From: Saccostrea echinata
Taxonomy: Eukaryota
Reading direction: 5' to 3'
Assembly: GCF_033153115.1 (NCBI RefSeq)
Contig: NW_026889763.1
Coordinates: forward strand, 17,422,001 to 17,486,000
Length of the DNA stretch: 64,000 nucleotides
Shown piece by piece: positions 1,985 through 36,235 of the stretch; the stretch's first letter is position 1; each line of letters opens with the position of its first letter. Position numbers and translations under genes: made by a program. The notes under the pieces are model-generated. The model made no database searches. It was not told where the DNA came from and was given only the letters and a program-made list of their open reading frames with translations.

Positions 1985-4576
1985 AGATGATTCCTTAGGG
2001 TTTCAAATACAGTTAAAGAACCATCCTACAACAAGAAGAGGCATACTTTCTGTGACAAGTTCCATTTATGACCCACTCGGCATTGTAGCGCCATTTGTTT
2101 TGACAGCTAAATCCATACTCCAACAGTTGTGTAAAGATGGTGTAAGATGGGATGATGAAATTGATGGAACCATGTTAAAGAAATGGAACAGCTGGCTCAT
2201 GCAAGTGAAACATCTGGAAGATGTAAAAATTGAAAGATGTTACAAGCCAGGGAATATTGGACATTCTGTGTTATACCAGTTACATTGTTTTGCGGACGCA
2301 AGCACACTTGGCATGGGAGTTGTCATATATTTGCGCATGTCTGATGATCATGGAAATGTACATTGTTCCTGCGTCATGGGCAAATCAAGAGTGGCACCAT
2401 TGAAAACAATGACAATACCTAGGATGGAACTCACCGCTGCAACATTAGCCGTCAAGTTAAGTAAACTGGTGGACGAGCAATTAGACTTTCCTAAGAGAAA
2501 ATACATTTCTGGACAGACAGTACAACAGTACTTCGCTACATCGCTAACACCAAGACTAGATTCCAAACCTTTGTCACCAATCGACTTGCCATCATCAACG
2601 CCCATACAACTTTTGATCAATGGCATTATGTGAACACAAAAGAAAATCCTGCTGACTGTGCATCTAGAGGAATATCTGTGATTCATAAATTCATAGATCA
2701 TCAGTTGTGGTTTCATGGACCTGAATTCCTCCTGAAATCAGAATCTACTTGGCTTTTGAACTGTGACACTGATACTACTATTGGGGTTAACGACGTGGAA
2801 GTGAAAAAATGCATCAACACTACCCTTATACAGTCTTCCTTCAATGGTGTTGAAAAAATTCTTCAGCATTTCTCAGATTGGAAAAGACTTAAAGTCACGG
2901 TTGGATGGTTCTTGAAAGCCAAGGATAACTTGAGAAAAATAGTCAAGCAGAAAATAGAAAGAAGAGAAAAAATGATAGACTCTGGAGCTTCAAAGGAGAG
3001 AATCATGCAGATTGAAAGAGTGGAAAGTGAAACAAGAGTAAAGGAGTCCAAGAAGGCAAAAGCGATTCCTTTTCTCAGTACTGATATCCTCGACAGAGCT
3101 GAAAGAGAACTTGTGGCATATGAGCAAAGGCAGTATTATGCAAATGAATTGAAAATTCTTGGAGACAAACATGGATATGTCAAAAAATCGTCACAGCTTT
3201 CTAGATTAGATCCTACCGGTATTTTACATAAAGGAGTCATCAAAGTCGGGGGCAGACTAGAAAAGCTAAACGCATCTTTTACCACTAAGCATCAGATGAT
3301 CATTCCAAAAAATTCCACACTGACTAGGATGATTGCTATAGATGCCCACAGATCTGCAGGACACATGGGCAAGAATGCTACTTTAGCAGTCATTCGAGAG
3401 AAGTTTTGGATACCCGGTATTTCATCTGTATTAAAATCGCTTATCTCAAAATGTGTTATATGCAGACGATACCAGTCTCCTCCAATGCACCAAAAAATGG
3501 CCAATCTACCTTCTGAAAGATTGGAAACAGATGATCCCCCATTCACCCGTGTAGATATGGACTACTTTGGACCATTTGAATTGAAGAGAGGAAGGAGTAT
3601 GGTGAAACGATATGGTGTAATATTTACCTGTCTTAATACACGAGCAGTCCATCTTGAAGTGTCATTCTCTTTGGATACAGATTCATGTATTGATGCTATT
3701 CGCAGATTCATCGCAAGGAGAGGAAAACCTAAATTTATCCGATCAGACAATGGTACAAATTTAGTGGGTGCAGAAAAGGAATTAAGAGAAGCTATCAAGA
3801 CATGGAACGTTAACCAAATTCATTCTCATTTGTTGCAGTCAGGGATAGATTGGATGTTTAACCCACCATCAGCATCACATTTCGGAGGTGTCTGGGAACG
3901 ACTTATCAGATCCGTAAGAAATGTGATATTTTCCGTTTTACATGAACAAACTATTTATCTGAACGATGAAGGACTCACAACTTTGTTCTGTGAAGTTGAA
4001 GCAATTCTCAATGGAAGACCTTTGACGCCCACATCAGATAACCCTAGTGATCTAAGCGCTTTGACACCAAACCATTTGCTACTTCTTAGATCTGGAGAAA
4101 CTTGCCCACCTGGAACTTTTTCACAGATGGACAACTACGTTCGACGTAGATGGCGCCAGATCCAATATCTCGCAGACATCTTCTGGAGAAGATGGATTAA
4201 AGAGTATCTACCCCTTCTTCAGAGCAGGCAGATGTGGTTAAAGGAGGGACGCAATGTTAAAGAAGGTGATTTGGTTCTTATTCTTATTTTGACCTCTTCA
4301 CTTAAAATTAGATAAATTGAAAGAAAAATTTACCTCGAGGCGCTCGAAAAGTCCGCCATTGAAAACTTAAGCGATAACCCTATATGACGTAGTTTCTCCG
4401 CCCTGTTATTGTTGAAAATGGCCCAAGGAATTATTGGAATCTTGGACGATTTCTGGAGGTTCAAAAAGACAGACATAATATTGTGCGTGTTATGAAAGTG
4501 AAAACTGTGTCCAATATTCTTACACGTCCAATAACGAAACTGTGTCTTGTGTTGGAGTCGGATGACAGAGACTAAA
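1985..4576 (+). mobile_element. pol: Bel/Pao LTR retrotransposon pol remnant (RNase H region + integrase), 5'-truncated and disrupted
   Basis: Pao motifs YDPLG, LHCFADAS, KSRVAP, TIPRMEL, FWTDS, NPADCASRG; integrase HHCC (AHRSAGH...CVIC) and DDE core (DYFGP, SDNGT, GGVWERL); frameshift near 2500; ~125-bp insert at ~4282-4405, after which IVENGPRNYWNLGR...RPITKLCLVLE resumes. Confidence 0.95.
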
Positions 4577-7597: not shown

Positions 7598-8372
7598 TTA
7601 TTCCAAAGTGTATAAACTACGTAATCTTAAACTCTTGTCAGTATTTTTCAGATCCTCCTCGTCATTAACCTTTCTGAAACCAAGTAGATTAAGCACATCT
7701 TTACACTCGTCTTCAATCAGTCGAACATCCCTTAATTTCAATCTTTTTCTCCATGATTGAGATGTTAGAGTGGAGTTCGAGCGAATTGTTCCGTAAAAAG
7801 AATCGTTTGGGTTTCCGGCGGAAGTGTGATTAAAAATCCATTCATCAAAGCTATCACTGAACTCTAAATTCAAATTTCTGTATAATTTATTTGACATATC
7901 TATTGGATTCTCAGCTAATTCCTCATACAGCACTGTAATGATGCGGTTAGGAAACCGTCTTTGCAGAACTTTTGAATATTCTACGTCTGTCTGGATTCGT
8001 TCACACAACCATTTAGCACTCGAACTAATTTTTATTTTTCGTAAATATCCGCCCCGTTTCCTGGAGTCCATGGTTCCACGAGGATCTCTCAGTAAGTGAA
8101 TAATACGAAGATCCGGGAACTTCAACAAAAGGCGAGGAACAAATTCCATAGACAACCGGATAGTTTTGACAATTATTGCATTAGAATGGTGACAAATTGC
8201 CTGTACCATCTTCATACACGTGTCGAAACCTGGTCTTGACTTGCAGTAAGGAATCGCACTCATTACCGCCAAACTGTGCTTTCGCGGACCAAGAATATTT
8301 CGCTTATGTTCTTGCAGACGACAGCGGAAGAGATCGCCAAAAACCTCTAAAATTTCACTGGTGTTAAATTGC
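7598..8372 (-). CDS. Carbohydrate sulfotransferase (CHST1/3/5-like), last coding exon
   Basis: VKTIRL, 3'-PAPS-binding IIHLLRDPRG, YEELAENP; acceptor ttgcag|G is phase-compatible with the upstream exon; stop at 7598. Confidence 0.9.
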
Positions 8373-8528
8373 CTGCAATAAGCATTATATTTTATTACTT
8401 TTAATTTTATTCGATTTGTTTTAAAATGTAAAGGTTTCAACATAGTTGTGTTCCAAATCAATTACTCAGAGCCTTTTGGTTGGACATTGAATTCAATACT
8501 TGTAGTTGATTTTATCATAAATACCTAC

Positions 8529-16521: not shown

Positions 16522-19083
16522 CTATTCCTGTAACATGGCTCTAAGAGAGTTCCAAAATTCTGCTTTATTCCCCTCATCATTCGGATATTCAATATAAGCA
16601 TTCTTTTCCACCAATGACATAAAGCGTATGGATGATCTGATTTTGGAGTTCTCAGTTGGCAGCCCCCCGTACATTATGAGGAGCACTGACTGTTTATCAC
16701 GTGAATACCTGTTGTCTGTTAATGCCATTTCTAGTTCATACATACACCAATGCGAGGACAAAAAATTTTCTGTCACAACACACAGAATATATCTGCTGTT
16801 ACAGATTGACTTAGTTATATTTTCACCGATTGATTTCCCCGGAGTGAAATCCCTCTCATGAAGACATAAAACCAGTTGTGACGTAATTTCTAACTCTGAT
16901 ATCATTTCCTGTGTGACGAAGTCCCTTTCTTCGTCAGCATGAGAAACGAAAGCATCGTAATCGTATTTTTTATCCTCAGTTTTTCGTGACGCGGGAAGAC
17001 TCCATTTTGACATGTAGTAGATGTATCGAAGTTTCCAACGATAACGATAAAGAATTCCCCCAACTATGAATATCGTAAAGACGACATAGAAAGCAGAGAG
17101 AACGCCGATTAGCTCCTCGTAATTATCACAATTTTTCACAAGCGTCTTGACGATTAATTCTAGGTCGCTTAAATTCTTATGAGGGCAGGTGTATGAATCT
17201 CTGTCCACAAATCTTATTTTCGATTTCAATATCCACTTGAGTAGATCCAGAGAATCACAGGAACATCGGAGATCATTACCTTTCAAGCTGATGTTCACAG
17301 GATGATTTATCTGCATTGATTCCAGCGCCATTTTTGCCGTGTCGGAAAATGATGACAATTCATTGTTGGACAGATCTAAGACTTTTAGAGAGCCAAGTTG
17401 GCCTTCATTGAGAGAAAATTCTCTCAATAAGTTAGAACTTAGATTCAATATTTCCAGAGAAATGAGTCCATCAAAAGTCTGCGTGGGCAGGTGCCTTATC
17501 ATATTTTGGGAAAGATCCAATTGTTTTAGATTCGTTGAATTTCGAAAATAAGCTGAGTTGTTAGTATTTATACACTTCCCAAGTAAGTTTTTTCTTAGAG
17601 TAAGTGATTTCAAATTAGGGAATTTTTCAAAGAAGTAAGTGGACAATGTTGATATGAAATTATAAGAGAAATCAATCTTTTCAACTTTGTCTAGTCCAAA
17701 GATCGGTCCTGTAAGATTCTCAAAAAAATTCCTGTTTAAGGAGATCTCTTTCACCGAGTTATTTCTGTTGACTACAATTTTACCAATCGCCCAATGCAGA
17801 GAGGCCCTACTATAATCCACACTTTCTAACTGTGGAGGGAGAGACCATTCCCCTGACTGAGACTTCCAATAACTTATTCTGGGAATGGAGTAAGGACATA
17901 ATGGCTTGTTTTTGCATTCCTGAAAATCAGTCGGCGCTCCGGTAAAATGTGTGGCATGCTGTTTACTCAAATCAATTCTCTGCACGTTTTTCATGGCTTT
18001 CATTTGATAAACATACTTTCCAAATGTTAGTTTGTTATCGGAGAGATTTAAGAACTCGAGATTTGGTGGCAGATAGAGGGGAGTGTTGTACTCTGCCATC
18101 TCCAACCTATTGCTTGCTATGGCGAGATTTTTAATCGAGCTATTAGCTAAGTTTTTTACGATGTCTACAGTTAAATATGTTCCCATCCCGAAAGTGCAAT
18201 GTATTTTGTCTAATTTTAATGTCTTTAAATGACGCATGTTTATGAAATGTTCAGAGATGTTTGGGAGTGAATGGAAGGACAGTTTGTCGTTGTAGGATAG
18301 GTCCAGATAGTTTAAGTTTACCAAAGTAGAAAACGTTTTTTTGCTGACTGACCTTATGGAACATCCAGAGAGGTCTATGTATTCAAGGCTAGGAAAACTT
18401 TCGAAGAAGTCATCAGTCAGGTGCTCGATGAGACAGTATTTAGCATTTTCTCTCCCAGAGACAATTAATCTCGTGATACTTACATTTATTTTTTTCAATT
18501 TACCACCTTTACATATTTGGGGGTTTTCAAATTCAAATTCCTTGCAAACTTTGAAACTGAAGTTTCCTTCTTTAACACCATCAATTGCCAACGTTTTAAG
18601 AGATGGACTATGTCGAAAAAGTTCTGCGTTATAGTTTTTTGCTGTATCAAAATTGTTGTGTGAAAGATTTAATTCCTGAAGATTCCACAGATATTGAAAC
18701 ACGTTTCTTGGAAGGCTCTTCTTGTCAAAACTCAATCTGTTGTTGGATAAATCCAACGTCTCCAAGTAAGGAATTGACTTGAACGATTGATTCCCAAGCT
18801 CGCTTATGTTATTGTAAGATAAATTGAGATGTTTTAAAGTAATAGAATAGTATTCAGGTATCGAGACATTTTGTAATTGGTTTTGTGATAAATCAATGCT
18901 GTACAGCGTACCGTTGTTTATAAGGTTAGAAGGTAACTCTGTTAACCCTTTATTCGAACAGTCTACGTCAAAGAGTATCTTGTTTAACGATTTATAAGTG
19001 CAGTTATCTTTATTCTCGCAGGGGTTCTGAGGCAGCAACTCGACAATGGATAGGAGAATTATAAAATACAAAACCTCAATCAT
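16522..19083 (-). CDS. TLR: Toll-like receptor A (853 aa, single coding exon)
   Basis: Signal peptide, LRRNT (VDCSNKGL), many LxxLxLxxN repeats, LRRCT (GNDLRCSC), TM helix, TIR (YDAFVSH, LCLHERDFTPG, WCMYEL, FW); 5'UTR acceptor near 19204. Confidence 0.97.
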   Translation of the reverse strand: MIEVLYFIILLSIVELLPQNPCENKDNCTYKSLNKILFDVDCSNKGLTELPSNLINNGTLYSIDLSQNQLQNVSIPEYYSITLKHLNLSYNNISELGNQSFKSIPYLETLDLSNNRLSFDKKSLPRNVFQYLWNLQELNLSHNNFDTAKNYNAELFRHSPSLKTLAIDGVKEGNFSFKVCKEFEFENPQICKGGKLKKINVSITRLIVSGRENAKYCLIEHLTDDFFESFPSLEYIDLSGCSIRSVSKKTFSTLVNLNYLDLSYNDKLSFHSLPNISEHFINMRHLKTLKLDKIHCTFGMGTYLTVDIVKNLANSSIKNLAIASNRLEMAEYNTPLYLPPNLEFLNLSDNKLTFGKYVYQMKAMKNVQRIDLSKQHATHFTGAPTDFQECKNKPLCPYSIPRISYWKSQSGEWSLPPQLESVDYSRASLHWAIGKIVVNRNNSVKEISLNRNFFENLTGPIFGLDKVEKIDFSYNFISTLSTYFFEKFPNLKSLTLRKNLLGKCINTNNSAYFRNSTNLKQLDLSQNMIRHLPTQTFDGLISLEILNLSSNLLREFSLNEGQLGSLKVLDLSNNELSSFSDTAKMALESMQINHPVNISLKGNDLRCSCDSLDLLKWILKSKIRFVDRDSYTCPHKNLSDLELIVKTLVKNCDNYEELIGVLSAFYVVFTIFIVGGILYRYRWKLRYIYYMSKWSLPASRKTEDKKYDYDAFVSHADEERDFVTQEMISELEITSQLVLCLHERDFTPGKSIGENITKSICNSRYILCVVTENFLSSHWCMYELEMALTDNRYSRDKQSVLLIMYGGLPTENSKIRSSIRFMSLVEKNAYIEYPNDEGNKAEFWNSLRAMLQE

Positions 19084-30048: not shown

Positions 30049-32132
30049 TTTTTTTAAATAGAGAGGATTAGATCAACATCTCATATCAATAGGACACGTT
30101 ATGCTATATTAACTTTTGTACCGAGACCTTATCCGCAAATATAACGATTTCATTCACACACCACATTTTTTAAACTTAGAAGTCAGAATATTCTTGTACT
30201 AGTTAAGTTTATACTGTCGAGTAGCTTAGAAATATGAAGCCTGCATGTAGAGTTATTACAGCTGGAATTTAATTCGAGGAAGGAAATCATAAAGAACGTT
30301 CTACACCTCTCATCCGTACCACATAAAAACTCCTTCTGACTTTTATCTTTGTTTAATTCTTCTTGTTAAACGCGATAGCTTCTCATCCCGGAGGACGATA
30401 TAGATACTAGAGGGTATTAATGCGAGTTAACTCGGAGGATACATGTCATATACCAGGTGATACATATATCTTTAAACAAGGAGCTTTATACGTTGGGTTC
30501 AATCTGGTTTTCAAAAATCTCAAAAGATAGTTTTAAGTTCGATCCGTAAGTGAGGACACTTTAATCAAACAAGGAAATTCATTAATTAACATGTTACTGT
30601 TTTCATAATAAAAATTAGAAATGCTTCGAATTTTGTTGAGCAAATTTAAAAAAAGAAAGGAGAAATTGTTCACACAGCTATTAAAAATACATATAAAAAT
30701 ACATATGAACATGGCAAATCAAGCGAATTTTAATTATTTCTGTGTGAAAAAAACAATGTAAATAGAAATAAAACACCACTTATAAGACAGCGAACGAACG
30801 AACAAAAAATAATAAAAATAATAGAAACAAAAATGGTAAAAAAAAACAAAAACAAAAACAACTGATACAAATCTAAAACCAACTTAAGGACATACGCAAC
30901 GTACCTTACCTACTGATAATTTTTCGAGATATTCTTAATTTAAGATTATAGTGCCATCAGATGTTTGTAGACAAAAAATCAGCATGGGTTACCAGGGGTT
31001 TTGAAAAGATATCAATTGATGGAAATTCTTGTATAATTCAAAGAAAAATATACAAAAATTACTAAACATATATTCTAGATATTTTGTTTATCCAAACTTG
31101 TTTTAGAAGAAGTGTACAATATCATATATAGACATTAAAATGTAGCACACAGTTCCTTTAAGTATTGGAACTCTTCAACTCCAGGGAAAAAGACAATAAA
31201 GTTCAAACTACGTTGCGTATGTCCTTAAACCGGAATAATTCTGCAAAGGTGTTTCTACATAAATATCAACCCTCAAACTTTATTACTGTAAACGTATGTG
31301 TCAATCAAAAATTAACTAAGCGCAATCGCTCTTTTCAACTGACTAGCGCAATCATAAATAAGCGCACTTGAGGTTTAACAATTTTACGGCATGTATTAGT
31401 TATAACCATACTTTAGCTTTATATGGAAGCGGTGCCAAAATAGGATTACCGCTAAAATCGAAACGTTTTCAGTGTTTGATTTTTTTTAGCCGATGTATAC
31501 ATCACAGTATAACAAAACAAGGGATACAGTGTACCTGCATGATTTGGGACAACTGACAATTGCTTACATAGCCTTTAAACGCGCCTTTTGTGCAAGCTGT
31601 CTTTAAAAAGCGTACGTTTAGTAACATATAGCTGCTTAGCTTAAAAACATTTTAGCTTTACTGTATGTGTACTTTAAAAAGCAGACTTTATATTTTAGCG
31701 GCTTTGGCGCAAACAACAATGCACTAATTCATGAATACCGTTAATAAATCATTTATGAATACAATACACTGCGCAGTCGCGCCAACCGCTCAATTCCAAG
31801 TGATTGCGCTAAATTCTGAATACGCCAATTTATTTACACGTATAGTATCTCAGGCTTTCCCTCCTTGAATCAAATCATAATGTTTTTTCAATGATTCCCA
31901 AAAATGTTTCATTGGAAGTCTTCAAGACATTTTTTAAAGGTAACTTAATTTTTTTTTCAAATTTAAATTGATAGGACTTTACAACTTGTCAGATTGTGTT
32001 TGCAGTTTTCTTGTATTATCATTCTAATTAGAACAAATTATACAACTATGATTATTCAACAACAAACAAGAGTTAAGAAAGATAGATTTAACAAATTCTT
32101 TTCATCTTAACATTCTTTGTTTGAATAGTACA

Positions 32133-32918
32133 TTAAAGGTGCTTAGACACAGATTTGAAGTTAATATTTTCTCAAATTTTCTGTATAATATTTCGACTTA
32201 TATATTGCAATAGCATTTCACACGAAAATGTAATTAAAAACTTATTTTATCTGGAAATTATTTGAACTACGAATTCCTGGACGCGTTTGATTAACACATC
32301 CTTGCACTTTCACAAATTTTATCTTTATCCTTAATATTTAAGAAAAGAAGCGATTTTGTTGTGTATTAATGAAAAACATTACATCTATAATCCAGAAAAT
32401 TCAGAGTAGAAATGTGCGAAAGCAAACCCCCTCACTAATATCGTCAGCCCGTGCTCAGTGTTGTGTACAGAGTTTAACAAATTGAATACACCCGTGAAAC
32501 GTAAACTGTTTTTGTAAACAGGGCACGAGCTCTGTTATTGTTAAGTTTACGATTCACCAGGTGTGTTCAATTGTTAAAGTCTGCACACACCACTGAGCAG
32601 GGACTGACAATACTGTGAGTGGGGTTTGCTTTCGAACATTTCTACTCTGAATTTTCTGGATTATAGTTTTAATATTTTTCATTAATACACAACAAAATTG
32701 CCACTTTTCTTAAGTATTAAGAATAAAATTAAAATTTGTGAAAGTGCAAGGATGTGTCAATCAAACGCGTCCAGAAATTTGAAGTTTCAATAACTTCGAG
32801 ATGAAATAAGATTTTTATTATATTTTAGTATGAAATGCTATAGCAACATATAAGTCATGAAATTATACAGAAAATTTGAGAAAATATTAACATCAAATCT
32901 GTGTCCAAGCACCTTTAA
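32133..32918. mobile_element. 786-bp fold-back (palindromic) MITE, TTAA-flanked with AGG...CCT termini (Kolobok-like)
   Basis: Arms ~32133-32505 and ~32545-32918 are reverse complements along their whole length, e.g. ttaaaggtgcttagacacagatttga / tcaaatctgtgtccaagcacctttaa. Confidence 0.92.
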
Positions 32919-32930
32919 GTATTTTAGATG

Positions 32931-35501
32931 TTACTCCATGATAGTATCAACAAGCTTCTGCCAGAACGCGGAATGATCTGTCTCGTTCTGGGGATAGAGT
33001 GCGTAGGAATTCTTCTCAATGAACGGCATCACTAACAAAGATTGCTGAATTCCTCCGAGATCCTCAAAAGAGGGTCCTTTAAGAAGGACGAAGATGATGC
33101 AGTCTTCATCTTGTCTGTAAACTCTATCCTCCAGAGCCATCTGTAGCTGATACATACACCAGGAATCCCTCAGGAAATCACCTGTCACTATACAGAGGAT
33201 CTTTTTGCTGTTGTGAATAGCGTAAGTTACACTGGCATATGTTTTCAAATTTGGACTAAAATCTCGATTTGGTAGACAAAGTTTCAACCCCCCTATTTCT
33301 TCTAAATGATGAACCAAATCCCGTTCGACGAAGGAATCTTTTTCAGTATAAGCCACAAAAGCTGAATATTTGTAATCTCTTTTATATTGATTTGTAGGGT
33401 TGACAATATCTTGAATTTTCCACTTCGTGAGATAGTAGAAGTAACGGACCGTCCACCGAAATTTGAATAGCGTACCCACAATTCCAACTGTTAAGATGGC
33501 GACTACAAAAACTGTTATACCAATTGTTCTTGGGATATTAGAACGACACTCCTGTTTGAGATCCTTTAATATATTATCTAGCTCATTAAAATTCCGTACT
33601 CTGGAGTGAGATGTTTTACATTTGTACTGGTATTTCTTGATAAAATGGATTTTCGAATCCTTAATCCATTGTAAAAAGTTTAGTGCTTCACATGTGCAAT
33701 CGAACAAATTTCCTAAAAGAGAAACATTTAAGTTATTACGTTCATGAATGCTTTGCAAATGCTGCATTGTTTCACGAGACAGTATATGCAATCGATTTGC
33801 TGCTAAGTCGAGATATTTTAACGGAGTACTGTCGTTTAATGTGATAGTGAAATTTGTAATAAGATTATGACTCAAATCAATTCTCTGAAGAGACCAAGCA
33901 CTTGCGAGGAAATTCGATGGTAAGGATGCAATTTCATTGTAGGACAACTTAATTTCTTTTAGCTTTTTTAGTGCTTGAAAGTGGTCAAACCCAACATTTT
34001 CATGGATGCAGCTCCCTAATATATTTTTCGATAAGTCCAAGTAAGTAATGTTCGGAAATGTTTCAAAGAAAAATTGAGATATATTGTGCATAAGGTTTCC
34101 GGAGAAATCTAAATATTCTGCATATTCCATACCATACATTGGTCCGGTCAAACTATTGAAAATACTGTTCTGTAGATGATACTCTTTGCAATGATTGTTC
34201 CGCAAATGGATTTTACGTATGGTAAATATAAAATTTGTGTCATGAAAAAAAAGTTTTTCAAGACTAGGTGGTACATTAAAAGTTATATTACGGTTTGACG
34301 AACCCAAAACTGACTGAGAGGGGAATGGGGTACTAATATCACTCCAGAGACCACTTTGAATGTCCAAATTTCTGTCATTTATATAAGTACAATCAATAGA
34401 ATTTTCACAAATCCACCAAGGAAGATTCTCGGATTTGTCCGAATTTTGCTTACTGAAATCTGCAACTTTAAGATGTGTGAGGAATTGATATGTTAGCATG
34501 TACATTCCCCATGTAAGGTGATTGTCGGAGATATTCAGGAAGGTCATGTTCGGAGGAAAATACTTGGGAACATCTGTGTCCATCATCTCCATACGATTAC
34601 TTGATAAGTCAAGATGTTTGATTGATGTGTTTTGAAAGTGAAAAATCTGCTTAACGGATAGGTACGTTCCAAGCCCAAACCTGCAGTGTATTTTCTTAGC
34701 GTGTAAGTTTTGAACATTTGTAAATTGTAGATCGTATGATACATTTTCTAGTACAGCAAATGTCATGAATTCATTGTTTGACAGATCAAGGGTGTGTAGC
34801 CAATGAAGAGAACTAAACACACCCCTGTCTATTGTACGAATCGGACATCCGGTTACAACTAAATATTTTAAGTTTGGTAAACCTCCAAAGAAACCTTCTT
34901 CAAGTTTTTCGAAATAACATTTTCCTATTTTCCCTGAGACGGAGAGTCTTGTCAAACTGGTTAAGTTCCATTCTCTTTGCTTAAAATCTCCCTGTAAAAG
35001 ACCATCTATCTTTAAAGACTCTAGTTTCTCCAGGTTTTTAAATGATTGGAAAGGATATGATACATTACTTTTGGAGTAAGTATTGCTTAGAATATTCAGA
35101 CTTCTCAGGTTTGACAAGTTATTAATAAATGACAGTTTTGGTGAATCGTCCCACCACAAGTTATTCTCAGCTAAATTCAGATCTTCCATGTAGGTGAGAT
35201 TCTGGAAAACGGTGGCGGATATTGATGTCAGATTATTTTTGTATATATTCAATTCCTTAAGAAGCAAAGGCAATGGGGGAGTAATACCAACTTCCTCTAA
35301 ATTGTTGTGGCTTAGGTCTATTTTTGAAACATTCATCTGAAATATTGGCATGGAATTTAAATTTCTTTTGGAGCAGTCTGCAGCCCACGTTCCATCTCCA
35401 ATATCGGTACAATAACAATCAACAGAGGAACAGTTGTTGGAAGCTGAGGTGCTAACGACTGTCAGCAATAAAACACAAGCAATGAAAAATGGAAATCCCA
35501 T
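32931..35501 (-). CDS. TLR: Toll-like receptor B (856 aa, single coding exon)
   Basis: Signal peptide, LRRNT (CYC...ADCSKRNL), LRRs, LRRCT (GNLFDCTC), TM helix, TIR (YSAFVAY, LCLPNRDFSPN, WCMYQL, FW); possible 5'UTR intron 35546-35670. Confidence 0.97.
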   Translation of the reverse strand: MGFPFFIACVLLLTVVSTSASNNCSSVDCYCTDIGDGTWAADCSKRNLNSMPIFQMNVSKIDLSHNNLEEVGITPPLPLLLKELNIYKNNLTSISATVFQNLTYMEDLNLAENNLWWDDSPKLSFINNLSNLRSLNILSNTYSKSNVSYPFQSFKNLEKLESLKIDGLLQGDFKQREWNLTSLTRLSVSGKIGKCYFEKLEEGFFGGLPNLKYLVVTGCPIRTIDRGVFSSLHWLHTLDLSNNEFMTFAVLENVSYDLQFTNVQNLHAKKIHCRFGLGTYLSVKQIFHFQNTSIKHLDLSSNRMEMMDTDVPKYFPPNMTFLNISDNHLTWGMYMLTYQFLTHLKVADFSKQNSDKSENLPWWICENSIDCTYINDRNLDIQSGLWSDISTPFPSQSVLGSSNRNITFNVPPSLEKLFFHDTNFIFTIRKIHLRNNHCKEYHLQNSIFNSLTGPMYGMEYAEYLDFSGNLMHNISQFFFETFPNITYLDLSKNILGSCIHENVGFDHFQALKKLKEIKLSYNEIASLPSNFLASAWSLQRIDLSHNLITNFTITLNDSTPLKYLDLAANRLHILSRETMQHLQSIHERNNLNVSLLGNLFDCTCEALNFLQWIKDSKIHFIKKYQYKCKTSHSRVRNFNELDNILKDLKQECRSNIPRTIGITVFVVAILTVGIVGTLFKFRWTVRYFYYLTKWKIQDIVNPTNQYKRDYKYSAFVAYTEKDSFVERDLVHHLEEIGGLKLCLPNRDFSPNLKTYASVTYAIHNSKKILCIVTGDFLRDSWCMYQLQMALEDRVYRQDEDCIIFVLLKGPSFEDLGGIQQSLLVMPFIEKNSYALYPQNETDHSAFWQKLVDTIME

Positions 35502-36235
35502 TCTTCGTTAACAATATGAATATTTTTCCTCAGAGGAACTTACACCTGTCGATGAAGATGGAATACTTTACCAAGATAAGCAGATTCTATAAATGAAGAT
35601 AAAGGGTTATATTTTAGAATGCTATATCAGATGCCAGAATCAAAATGAACAATTTTAACTAAATATTTACCTCAGTAATATCCCAGGGTAAGGTGATATT
35701 TCCGATTGAAATACTAGTGTTATCCAAATATCAGATTATGGTTGCAGAGAAGGAAGTTTCTCCAATTCATTTAAAACGGCATGAAAAGGAAACTACTCAA
35801 CCTCAACGAAAAAAAAACACAAAGCCGTAACTTAAACAAATTAACATGTTTCTATTCCGAGTATGGTTAGGTAAGCATTTGAAAAACCCATGAAAAATTT
35901 GATATACAATTAAGATTTATTTCCTTGCAAAGGCATATAAAAGAACACAGTGAATAAAGTTAATTTTCTTTTATTGCTAAAAATAGAAACAATGATACAT
36001 TTCCGGAAGTTGTTTGGAATCTAATTACGAATACTTGCACCATTGCTCACAATGAAAGAGTGATGCATGGCACTCAACACACACTTATTTTAACAACATG
36101 CATAAATTTATAAACCATTCTTTTAACTAGCAGGTTTAGGGTAAAAGAATTTTTTTTTAAATTCTTCCGGAAATACAAAAATTATTTTCCAGATCTCTTT
36201 CTCTCTTTCGCTTCTCCACAAGATGTCAAAATTTA

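Follow-up and report, generated by a model that had tools for sequence, protein, structure and literature searches.

A long palindrome immediately behind the stop codon of TLR-B, a TLR-like gene of the oyster Saccostrea echinata, raises the question of whether the end of this receptor's mRNA is set by a regulated switch or whether the gene has acquired a transposon that some of its transcripts happen to carry. The window analyzed here is a 64,000-nucleotide stretch of contig NW_026889763.1, and all coordinates refer to positions within it. TLR-B occupies 32931 to 35501 on the minus strand as an uninterrupted open reading frame of 856 amino acids, with LRRs and a TIR domain at residues 715 to 817. 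Read in its own sense, the frame starts at 35501 and ends at 32931, with a TAA stop codon at 32933 to 32931. Among named homologues, the closest matches were those of Magallana gigas (34%) and Mytilus californianus (29%). Within the assembly the 3' end of the gene is single copy, and no TLR paralogue with an empty insertion site was found in the genome, where the next TIR match is 38% identical.

The explanation that we consider probable is that a young Kolobok-type MITE sits behind TLR-B, that some transcripts traverse it, fold into a duplex of about 350 bp and become edited by ADAR, and that the element is a passenger rather than an evolved switch. The palindrome itself is real and is mostly explained by a prolific young family, and the evidence that its hairpin forms and is edited in TLR-B RNA is modest but specific.

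The palindromic element and its family

The unique part of the TLR-B 3' untranslated region is 12 nt long, as the first-pass annotation had noted, and extends on the minus strand from 32930 to 32919, up to the outer TTAA. Beyond the gene-side TTAA (32915 to 32918) lies a palindromic transposon of 778 bp (32137 to 32914) with AG...CT termini and without an open reading frame of at least 150 amino acids, followed by the distal TTAA (32133 to 32136). The original description of a 786-bp fold-back located the correct region, and its figure counts both TTAA copies. Two ungapped inverted arms of 348 nt each, 87% complementary, provide the fold-back. In mRNA order on the minus strand, the first arm (32571 to 32918) contains the AATAAA and the candidate A-to-I sites discussed below, and the second arm is at 32133 to 32480. 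RNA of 32133 to 32918 in the sense of the gene was predicted to fold with −482 kcal/mol, and none of 20 shuffled sequences was as stable (z = −61). The predicted structure has 350 pairs and a longest continuous helix of 50 bp, so that the long imperfect duplex first proposed is borne out by prediction, with the proposed length of about 370 bp being somewhat generous. An Rfam search of 31500 to 33200 returned zero matches.

A genome search with the element returned 2,948 first-look candidates, and the 40 that were scored were 96 to 100% identical, all but one of them essentially full length (39 of 40). An exact 25-letter pattern from the element's end matched 930 times per strand and its reversed control 0 times, and a pattern internal to the element matched 862 times, so that the 923-Mb genome contains 930 copies or more. 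Of 30 copies, 29 are bordered by TTAA on either side, and the surrounding DNA is unrelated. One copy (L008) inserted into another repeat, and because 13 of the 14 empty paralogous sites have just one TTAA where those flanks meet, the TTAA is a target duplication and the element proper therefore measures 778 bp with AG...CT ends. The earlier proposal that the palindrome is transposon-derived is upheld by these dispersed, near-identical copies together with the target duplication. The family majority already has unequal arms (313 of 349 positions identical). The copy in the window differs from that majority at 8 of 786 positions, or about 1.0%, and is therefore very young.

PMC9587614 defines the Kolobok superfamily by a TTAA duplication and 5'-RR...YY-3' termini and uses termini to distinguish it from piggyBac. 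The TLR-B element has the TTAA duplication, RR...YY termini (AG...CT), terminal inverted repeats, no transposase, and many near-identical dispersed copies, and by these sequence features it is an ordinary non-autonomous Kolobok-type MITE. piggyBac elements duplicate TTAA and have termini that start with CCC or CC, and membership in that group was rejected on the basis of the AG...CT ends. The KolobokP layout, with long terminal direct repeats and TIRs of at most 18 bp, was also rejected, as the repeats of the element form a single inverted pair of 348 nt and long direct repeats are absent from it. Kolobok MITEs in general share the target duplication, the 5'-RR...YY-3' ends, the absence of a transposase, and a high copy number with the TLR-B element. 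Xenopus Kolobok-N2_XT, described as a palindromic Kolobok MITE in PMC12676858, shares its palindromic interior as well. The TLR-B element differs from known Kolobok MITEs in that a single fold-back fills almost all of its 778 bp.

No autonomous partner sharing the element's ends was found in 33 loci, which comprised 12 plus 20 stretches around PF20700 (from 114 matches) and one solo end. Other TTAA-bounded elements, with GG termini, enclose PF20700 matches (L080, L085, L087, and L092). A long contig that matched the element at its end alone had been suspected of representing the autonomous partner and was rejected, since it maps to the solo end, 89 bp in length, at L094. Open frames of at least 100 codons end near 3 other copies among 47 and look like chance frames.

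Candidate poly(A) signals and placement behind TLR genes

The first arm contains an AATAAA on the minus strand (32814 to 32819) that is a candidate proximal poly(A) signal, mostly base-paired in the predicted hairpin. Its distance from the stop codon, given as about 110 nt by the first-pass annotation, is 112 nt. Donation of this hexamer by the transposon, also part of the original proposal, is confirmed by the family: of the 30 closest copies, 26 have AATAAA at this position, as do 11 of 18 copies drawn from one contig in order of location (1 of the 18 had no coverage there). From this sequence comparison, the hexamer and the imperfection of the arms are both traits inherited from the transposon family and not TLR adaptations. 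Minus-strand AATAAA has a density of 1.1 per kb in the window and occurs at most 150 nt past the stop in 5 of 29 other TLR-like genes (from the best 30 of 150 TIR matches); by itself, the hexamer would be weak evidence. It has TGTA upstream and CA and GT/T-rich stretches downstream, which we take to be a plausible poly(A)-site context, and it may yield some short TLR-B transcripts. Once the second arm is transcribed, the signal would be buried in the duplex. Because the AATAAA combines a plausible context with this predicted burial, kinetic competition between cleavage and folding is conceivable.

The next AATAAA on the minus strand (31829 to 31834) is a candidate distal signal, 1,097 nt past the stop with the insertion and 315 nt past it without the insertion. 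This hexamer sits in an older dispersed repeat (about 31659 to 31850), and its position makes it a candidate for the original mRNA end and for the distal end at present.

Placement was compared with 29 TLR-like genes, consisting of the best 30 of 150 TIR matches minus TLR-B. None of the 29 carries the palindromic family within about 1.5 kb past the stop. Of the 29 TLR flanks, 7 (1 being a microsatellite) contained fold-backs with arms of at least 45 nt; the background count was 6 of 56 flanks, and the excess of such shorter fold-backs behind TLR genes is not significant (p = 0.12). The apparent fold-back at L097 was rejected as an AT microsatellite. Arms of at least 200 nt occurred in 1 of the 29 other TLR flanks and 0 of the 56 background flanks. 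Assuming 25,000 to 35,000 genes and judging post hoc, 1.3 to 1.8 copies of the family are expected within 50 nt of any stop and 25 to 35 within 1 kb, compared to 0.008 and 0.15, respectively, for the stops of the 150 TIR loci. The placement is therefore ordinary genome-wide and, after the fact, unusual for a TLR.

Probable transcript contigs and candidate editing

Probable transcript data consisted of contigs from four (X1 to X4) of five listed runs, representing two samples of one study, with none of the runs recorded as RNA and their RNA status guessed, and the region compared with these contigs was 32530 to 35900. Summed contig depth over the arm was about 70 to 1,100, versus 2.5 to 7 for scattered TLR-B pieces, and because of this excess nearly all of the element signal must come from other loci. 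One X2 contig of 706 nt (depth, 7.24) connects gene and element; it spans 32842 to 33540 and takes in part of the TIR-coding region, the stop, and 77 nt of the element. Within it, the 12 unique nucleotides behind the stop have no listed differences. In total this junction contig has 12 differences in 699 nt, of which the 7 listed are in the coding part, and the insertion is therefore present on a second allele. Presence or absence of the element among individuals had been put forward as a check, and for the one contig and one sample that speak to it, the insertion is not private to the assembly. In an oyster, polymorphism of Kolobok insertions within a population has been described (bioRxiv 10.64898/2026.02.10.705023). 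Among the contigs listed for X1, X3, and X4, none crosses the junction, which makes these runs uninformative about the insertion.

In a stricter comparison restricted to 32842 to 33185, the junction contig has 5 differences, of which 3 are listed. These are A>G in the mRNA sense (plus-strand T>C) at 32900, 32888, and 32877 in the first arm, attributed to the junction contig by depth and end distance, and they are candidate A-to-I edits. The 267 unique nucleotides of the contig contain none of the listed differences, and the 2 unlisted ones probably lie near the contig end in the arm. If all 5 are in the arm, 5 differences in 77 nt compared to 7 in 622 nt exceed the coding SNP rate of the allele (p = 0.006). 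As a genomic control, the edited letter occurs in 0, 2, and 0 of 91 arms from 46 other copies at 32900, 32888, and 32877, respectively. No change is listed for the contig at 32892, a position at which 7 of 91 arms have the letter of the window copy, and this fits the same insertion as in the window. A search for A-to-G clusters in the arms, another proposed check, thus gave a positive result: all three readable differences have the direction of editing. This points to ADAR editing of TLR-B hairpin RNA as likely, as judged from one contig compared with paralogous genomic arms, and if editing is likely, read-through into the hairpin is therefore likely as well.

The same cluster could reflect allelic genomic variation, an assembly artifact, or runs that are DNA, with the insertion lying beside the gene and nothing more. 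The kind of run was guessed, contigs were the sole material, and alleles can mimic editing; the allele does differ at the 7 listed coding positions, and the gene-specific support comes from a single contig (depth, 7) of one sample, with paralogous genomic arms as the control in place of that individual's own DNA. Nevertheless, the 3 readable changes of 3 share a direction seen in 94 of 854 minor genomic variants in the arms, and that direction agrees with the sense of the gene. Contig totals of 45 to 62 million letters, set against a 923-Mb genome, suit RNA better than DNA. Together with the 5' bias of the family-wide pattern described next, these points leave genomic variation or artifact as an improbable account, which we rank below the regulated switch discussed in the last section.

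Across the family, eight sites in 32836 to 32888 showed T>C at 0 to 56% of contig depth in the four runs, versus 0 to 5.5% of genomic arms. All 10 candidate adenosines are paired with U in the predicted fold, with partners at 32151 to 32215 in the second arm. Among the differences listed, their 5' neighbors are 7 U, 3 C, 0 A, and 0 G, and a 5' U precedes 7 of the 10 compared to 1 of 13 other adenosines (p = 0.006). According to PMC9989829, ADAR favors 5' U or A and disfavors 5' G, and the one-way family pattern with its 5'-U bias matches this preference. The genome encodes ADAR-type adenosine-deaminase domains at several loci. Many differences between the runs and the window (for example, at 32559, 32600, 32702, 32722, 32728, and 32861) were rejected as edits, as genomic arms carry the same letters at about 50 to 97%. 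Changes of non-editing type at 32700 and 32759 account, in some of the runs, for as much as about 88% of depth versus 5 to 6 of 91 to 92 genomic arms, and because these letters are rare in the genome and abundant in the runs, expressed divergent copies can skew the family shares.

The junction contig terminates before the AATAAA and by itself is not proof of passage. A contig with these changes could arise if the internal AATAAA were a constitutive end, leaving mature TLR-B mRNA with a short, ordinary untranslated region, and if edits came from minor nascent read-through or from pairing in trans. Partners for pairing in trans would be plentiful, as the summed depth of the family (about 70 to 1,100) dwarfs that of TLR-B (2.5 to 7) and the solo 89-bp end occurs in a contig of depth 86 to 157. 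However, clustered editing usually arises from fold-back in cis, the sole junction contig found is the altered one with no unaltered counterpart, and termination of a contig inside a 1,000-copy repeat is expected from graph branching. We regard a constitutive end as unlikely, although it is the strongest of the alternatives. The first-pass proposal of a read-through duplex is, to this extent, supported: a junction contig with an A>G cluster points to it from a position upstream of the AATAAA.

The preferred explanation, a passenger element whose RNA is handled generically, would proceed as follows. A non-coding palindromic transposon inserted at a TTAA 12 nt past the TLR-B stop, and in at least some TLR-B molecules polymerase would pass the internal AATAAA; this passage is suggested because the A at 32900 has its cis partner at 32151, and an intramolecular duplex of that kind would require transcription about 660 nt beyond the hexamer. 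The read-through RNA would then fold into the predicted duplex of about 350 bp, and ADAR would hyper-edit it in the way that self dsRNA, including that of other young repeats, is generally treated. In this account the RNA nature of the run, editing as the source of the differences, pairing within one molecule, and the generic character of the editing are inferred. By analogy with human inverted Alus, it is plausible that the long form mildly dampens TLR-B output.

Hyper-editing of this kind has precedents. Host RNAs of oysters are hyper-edited (PMC9044936), and across the species surveyed, Crassostrea gigas among them, A-to-I editing falls mainly on young repeats (PMC9989829); DNA transposons are among the young repeats targeted in metazoans. 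Compared to such surveys, the TLR-B case points to one TLR transcript and one source family. As a passenger, the element offers a testable case for the origin of endogenous long dsRNA and A-to-I editing in a bivalve: every full copy of this one young palindromic MITE family can self-fold, and its RNA depth far exceeds that of the TLR. The case is also relevant to how molluscs tell self dsRNA from that of viruses and to editome work conducted without matched DNA.

Possible gating of mRNA ends by the duplex

Human inverted Alus, for example, those of MDM2, form 3' untranslated duplexes gated by alternative polyadenylation, according to bioRxiv 10.1101/2023.11.30.569399, and the TLR-B hairpin resembles them as a long transposon-derived duplex whose inclusion would hinge on poly(A) choice. 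At TLR-B, one DNA-transposon copy supplies both arms and places the candidate proximal signal inside the first arm. For the Alu pairs, silencing, nuclear retention, and regulated site choice are established, whereas the TLR-B hairpin is known from contigs and a predicted fold. The concept of a poly(A)-gated duplex is thus already known from human, and for TLR-B a regulated switch is a hypothesis. The paraspeckle route is not known to operate in molluscs. No report of a transposon hairpin in a bivalve TLR 3' untranslated region was found in the open-access literature.

If regulated, the internal AATAAA would end a short, active mRNA, read-through would give an edited or retained hairpin, and immune challenge would shift the ratio of the two as feedback on TLR-B. 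The likely reality of the long form (from the junction contig), the plausible context of a hexamer that synthesis of the second arm would bury, and the finding of the insertion on two alleles all agree with such a switch. So does what is known elsewhere: herpesvirus infection raises ADAR1 in oyster and abalone (PMC6651903), certain antiviral genes are hyper-edited under particular conditions only (PMC9044936), and the same logic is established for the human Alu pairs. Against it, the AATAAA is a family trait, the copy is about 1% off the family majority and very young, the family is absent behind the 29 other TLRs in the 1.5 kb inspected, and fold-backs behind TLRs are not significantly enriched. 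A regulated switch is therefore quite unlikely in our estimation. If it were true, a human inverted-Alu mechanism would be extended to an invertebrate immune receptor by one insertion diverged by about 1%.

A more far-reaching version would make the element a self-gating module, in which the poly(A) signal works until the second arm buries it, kinetic or infection-driven read-through yields an ADAR-edited dsRNA of 350 bp, and the family's roughly 1,000 copies carry the cassette to further genes. Of the readings considered we hold this to be the least probable. Processing of the duplex by Dicer into siRNA is unlikely in a mollusc, and no dedicated endo-siRNA pathway is reported for molluscs in PMC12479628.

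Among 30 copies of the family, the hairpin of the window copy ranks third in stability, a rank that agrees with a switch. Youth accounts for this high stability as well as selection does. Even so, the stability rank, the rarity of long arms behind genes, and the post hoc expectation of 0.008 copies of the family within 50 nt of a TLR stop leave room for selection.

Fold-back elements behind TLR-like genes

Another TLR-like open reading frame, near position 8913467 of contig C54 in the species' own genome assembly (G000), is followed by a fold-back (870 nt, 70%) that begins 213 nt past the stop codon, with an AATAAA at +349. The anatomy is the same as in the TLR-B 3' flank, here supplied by an older element unrelated to the one behind TLR-B. 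Within the window, the 853-aa paralogue TLR-A (16522-19083), with a TIR domain 38% identical to that of TLR-B, has no fold-back within 1.5 kb downstream of its stop codon.

Fragments of the TLR-B element family

An older half-copy relative of the palindromic TLR-B element family, 77-79% identical, lies at 39329-39758 of the window. A solo 89-bp family end is found at locus L094 (G000 contig C20, near 6171000) and is contained in contigs of depth 86-157 from X2, a probable RNA run; it is a possible trans-pairing partner.

Other elements and coding content

The window holds a second TTAA-bounded MITE, 345 bp long (30884-31228) with perfect 20-bp inverted ends, whose end resembles that of a TTAA-bounded element surrounding a match to PF20700, a transposase-like domain, at locus L087. 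Near-identical PF20700 transposase-like open reading frames form long tandem arrays with a period of 3.5-4 kb on G000 contigs C12, C29, C52, C79, and C122, recalling KolobokP multimers. A 2.4-kb element at 48629-51063 of the window, with 318-bp inverted ends that are 97% identical, is probably another young DNA transposon. Also present are retroelement-type pol fragments (2172-4315; integrase core, H2C2 zinc finger, and DUF5641) and, on the minus strand, a 281-aa sulfotransferase-family open reading frame (7598-8443).
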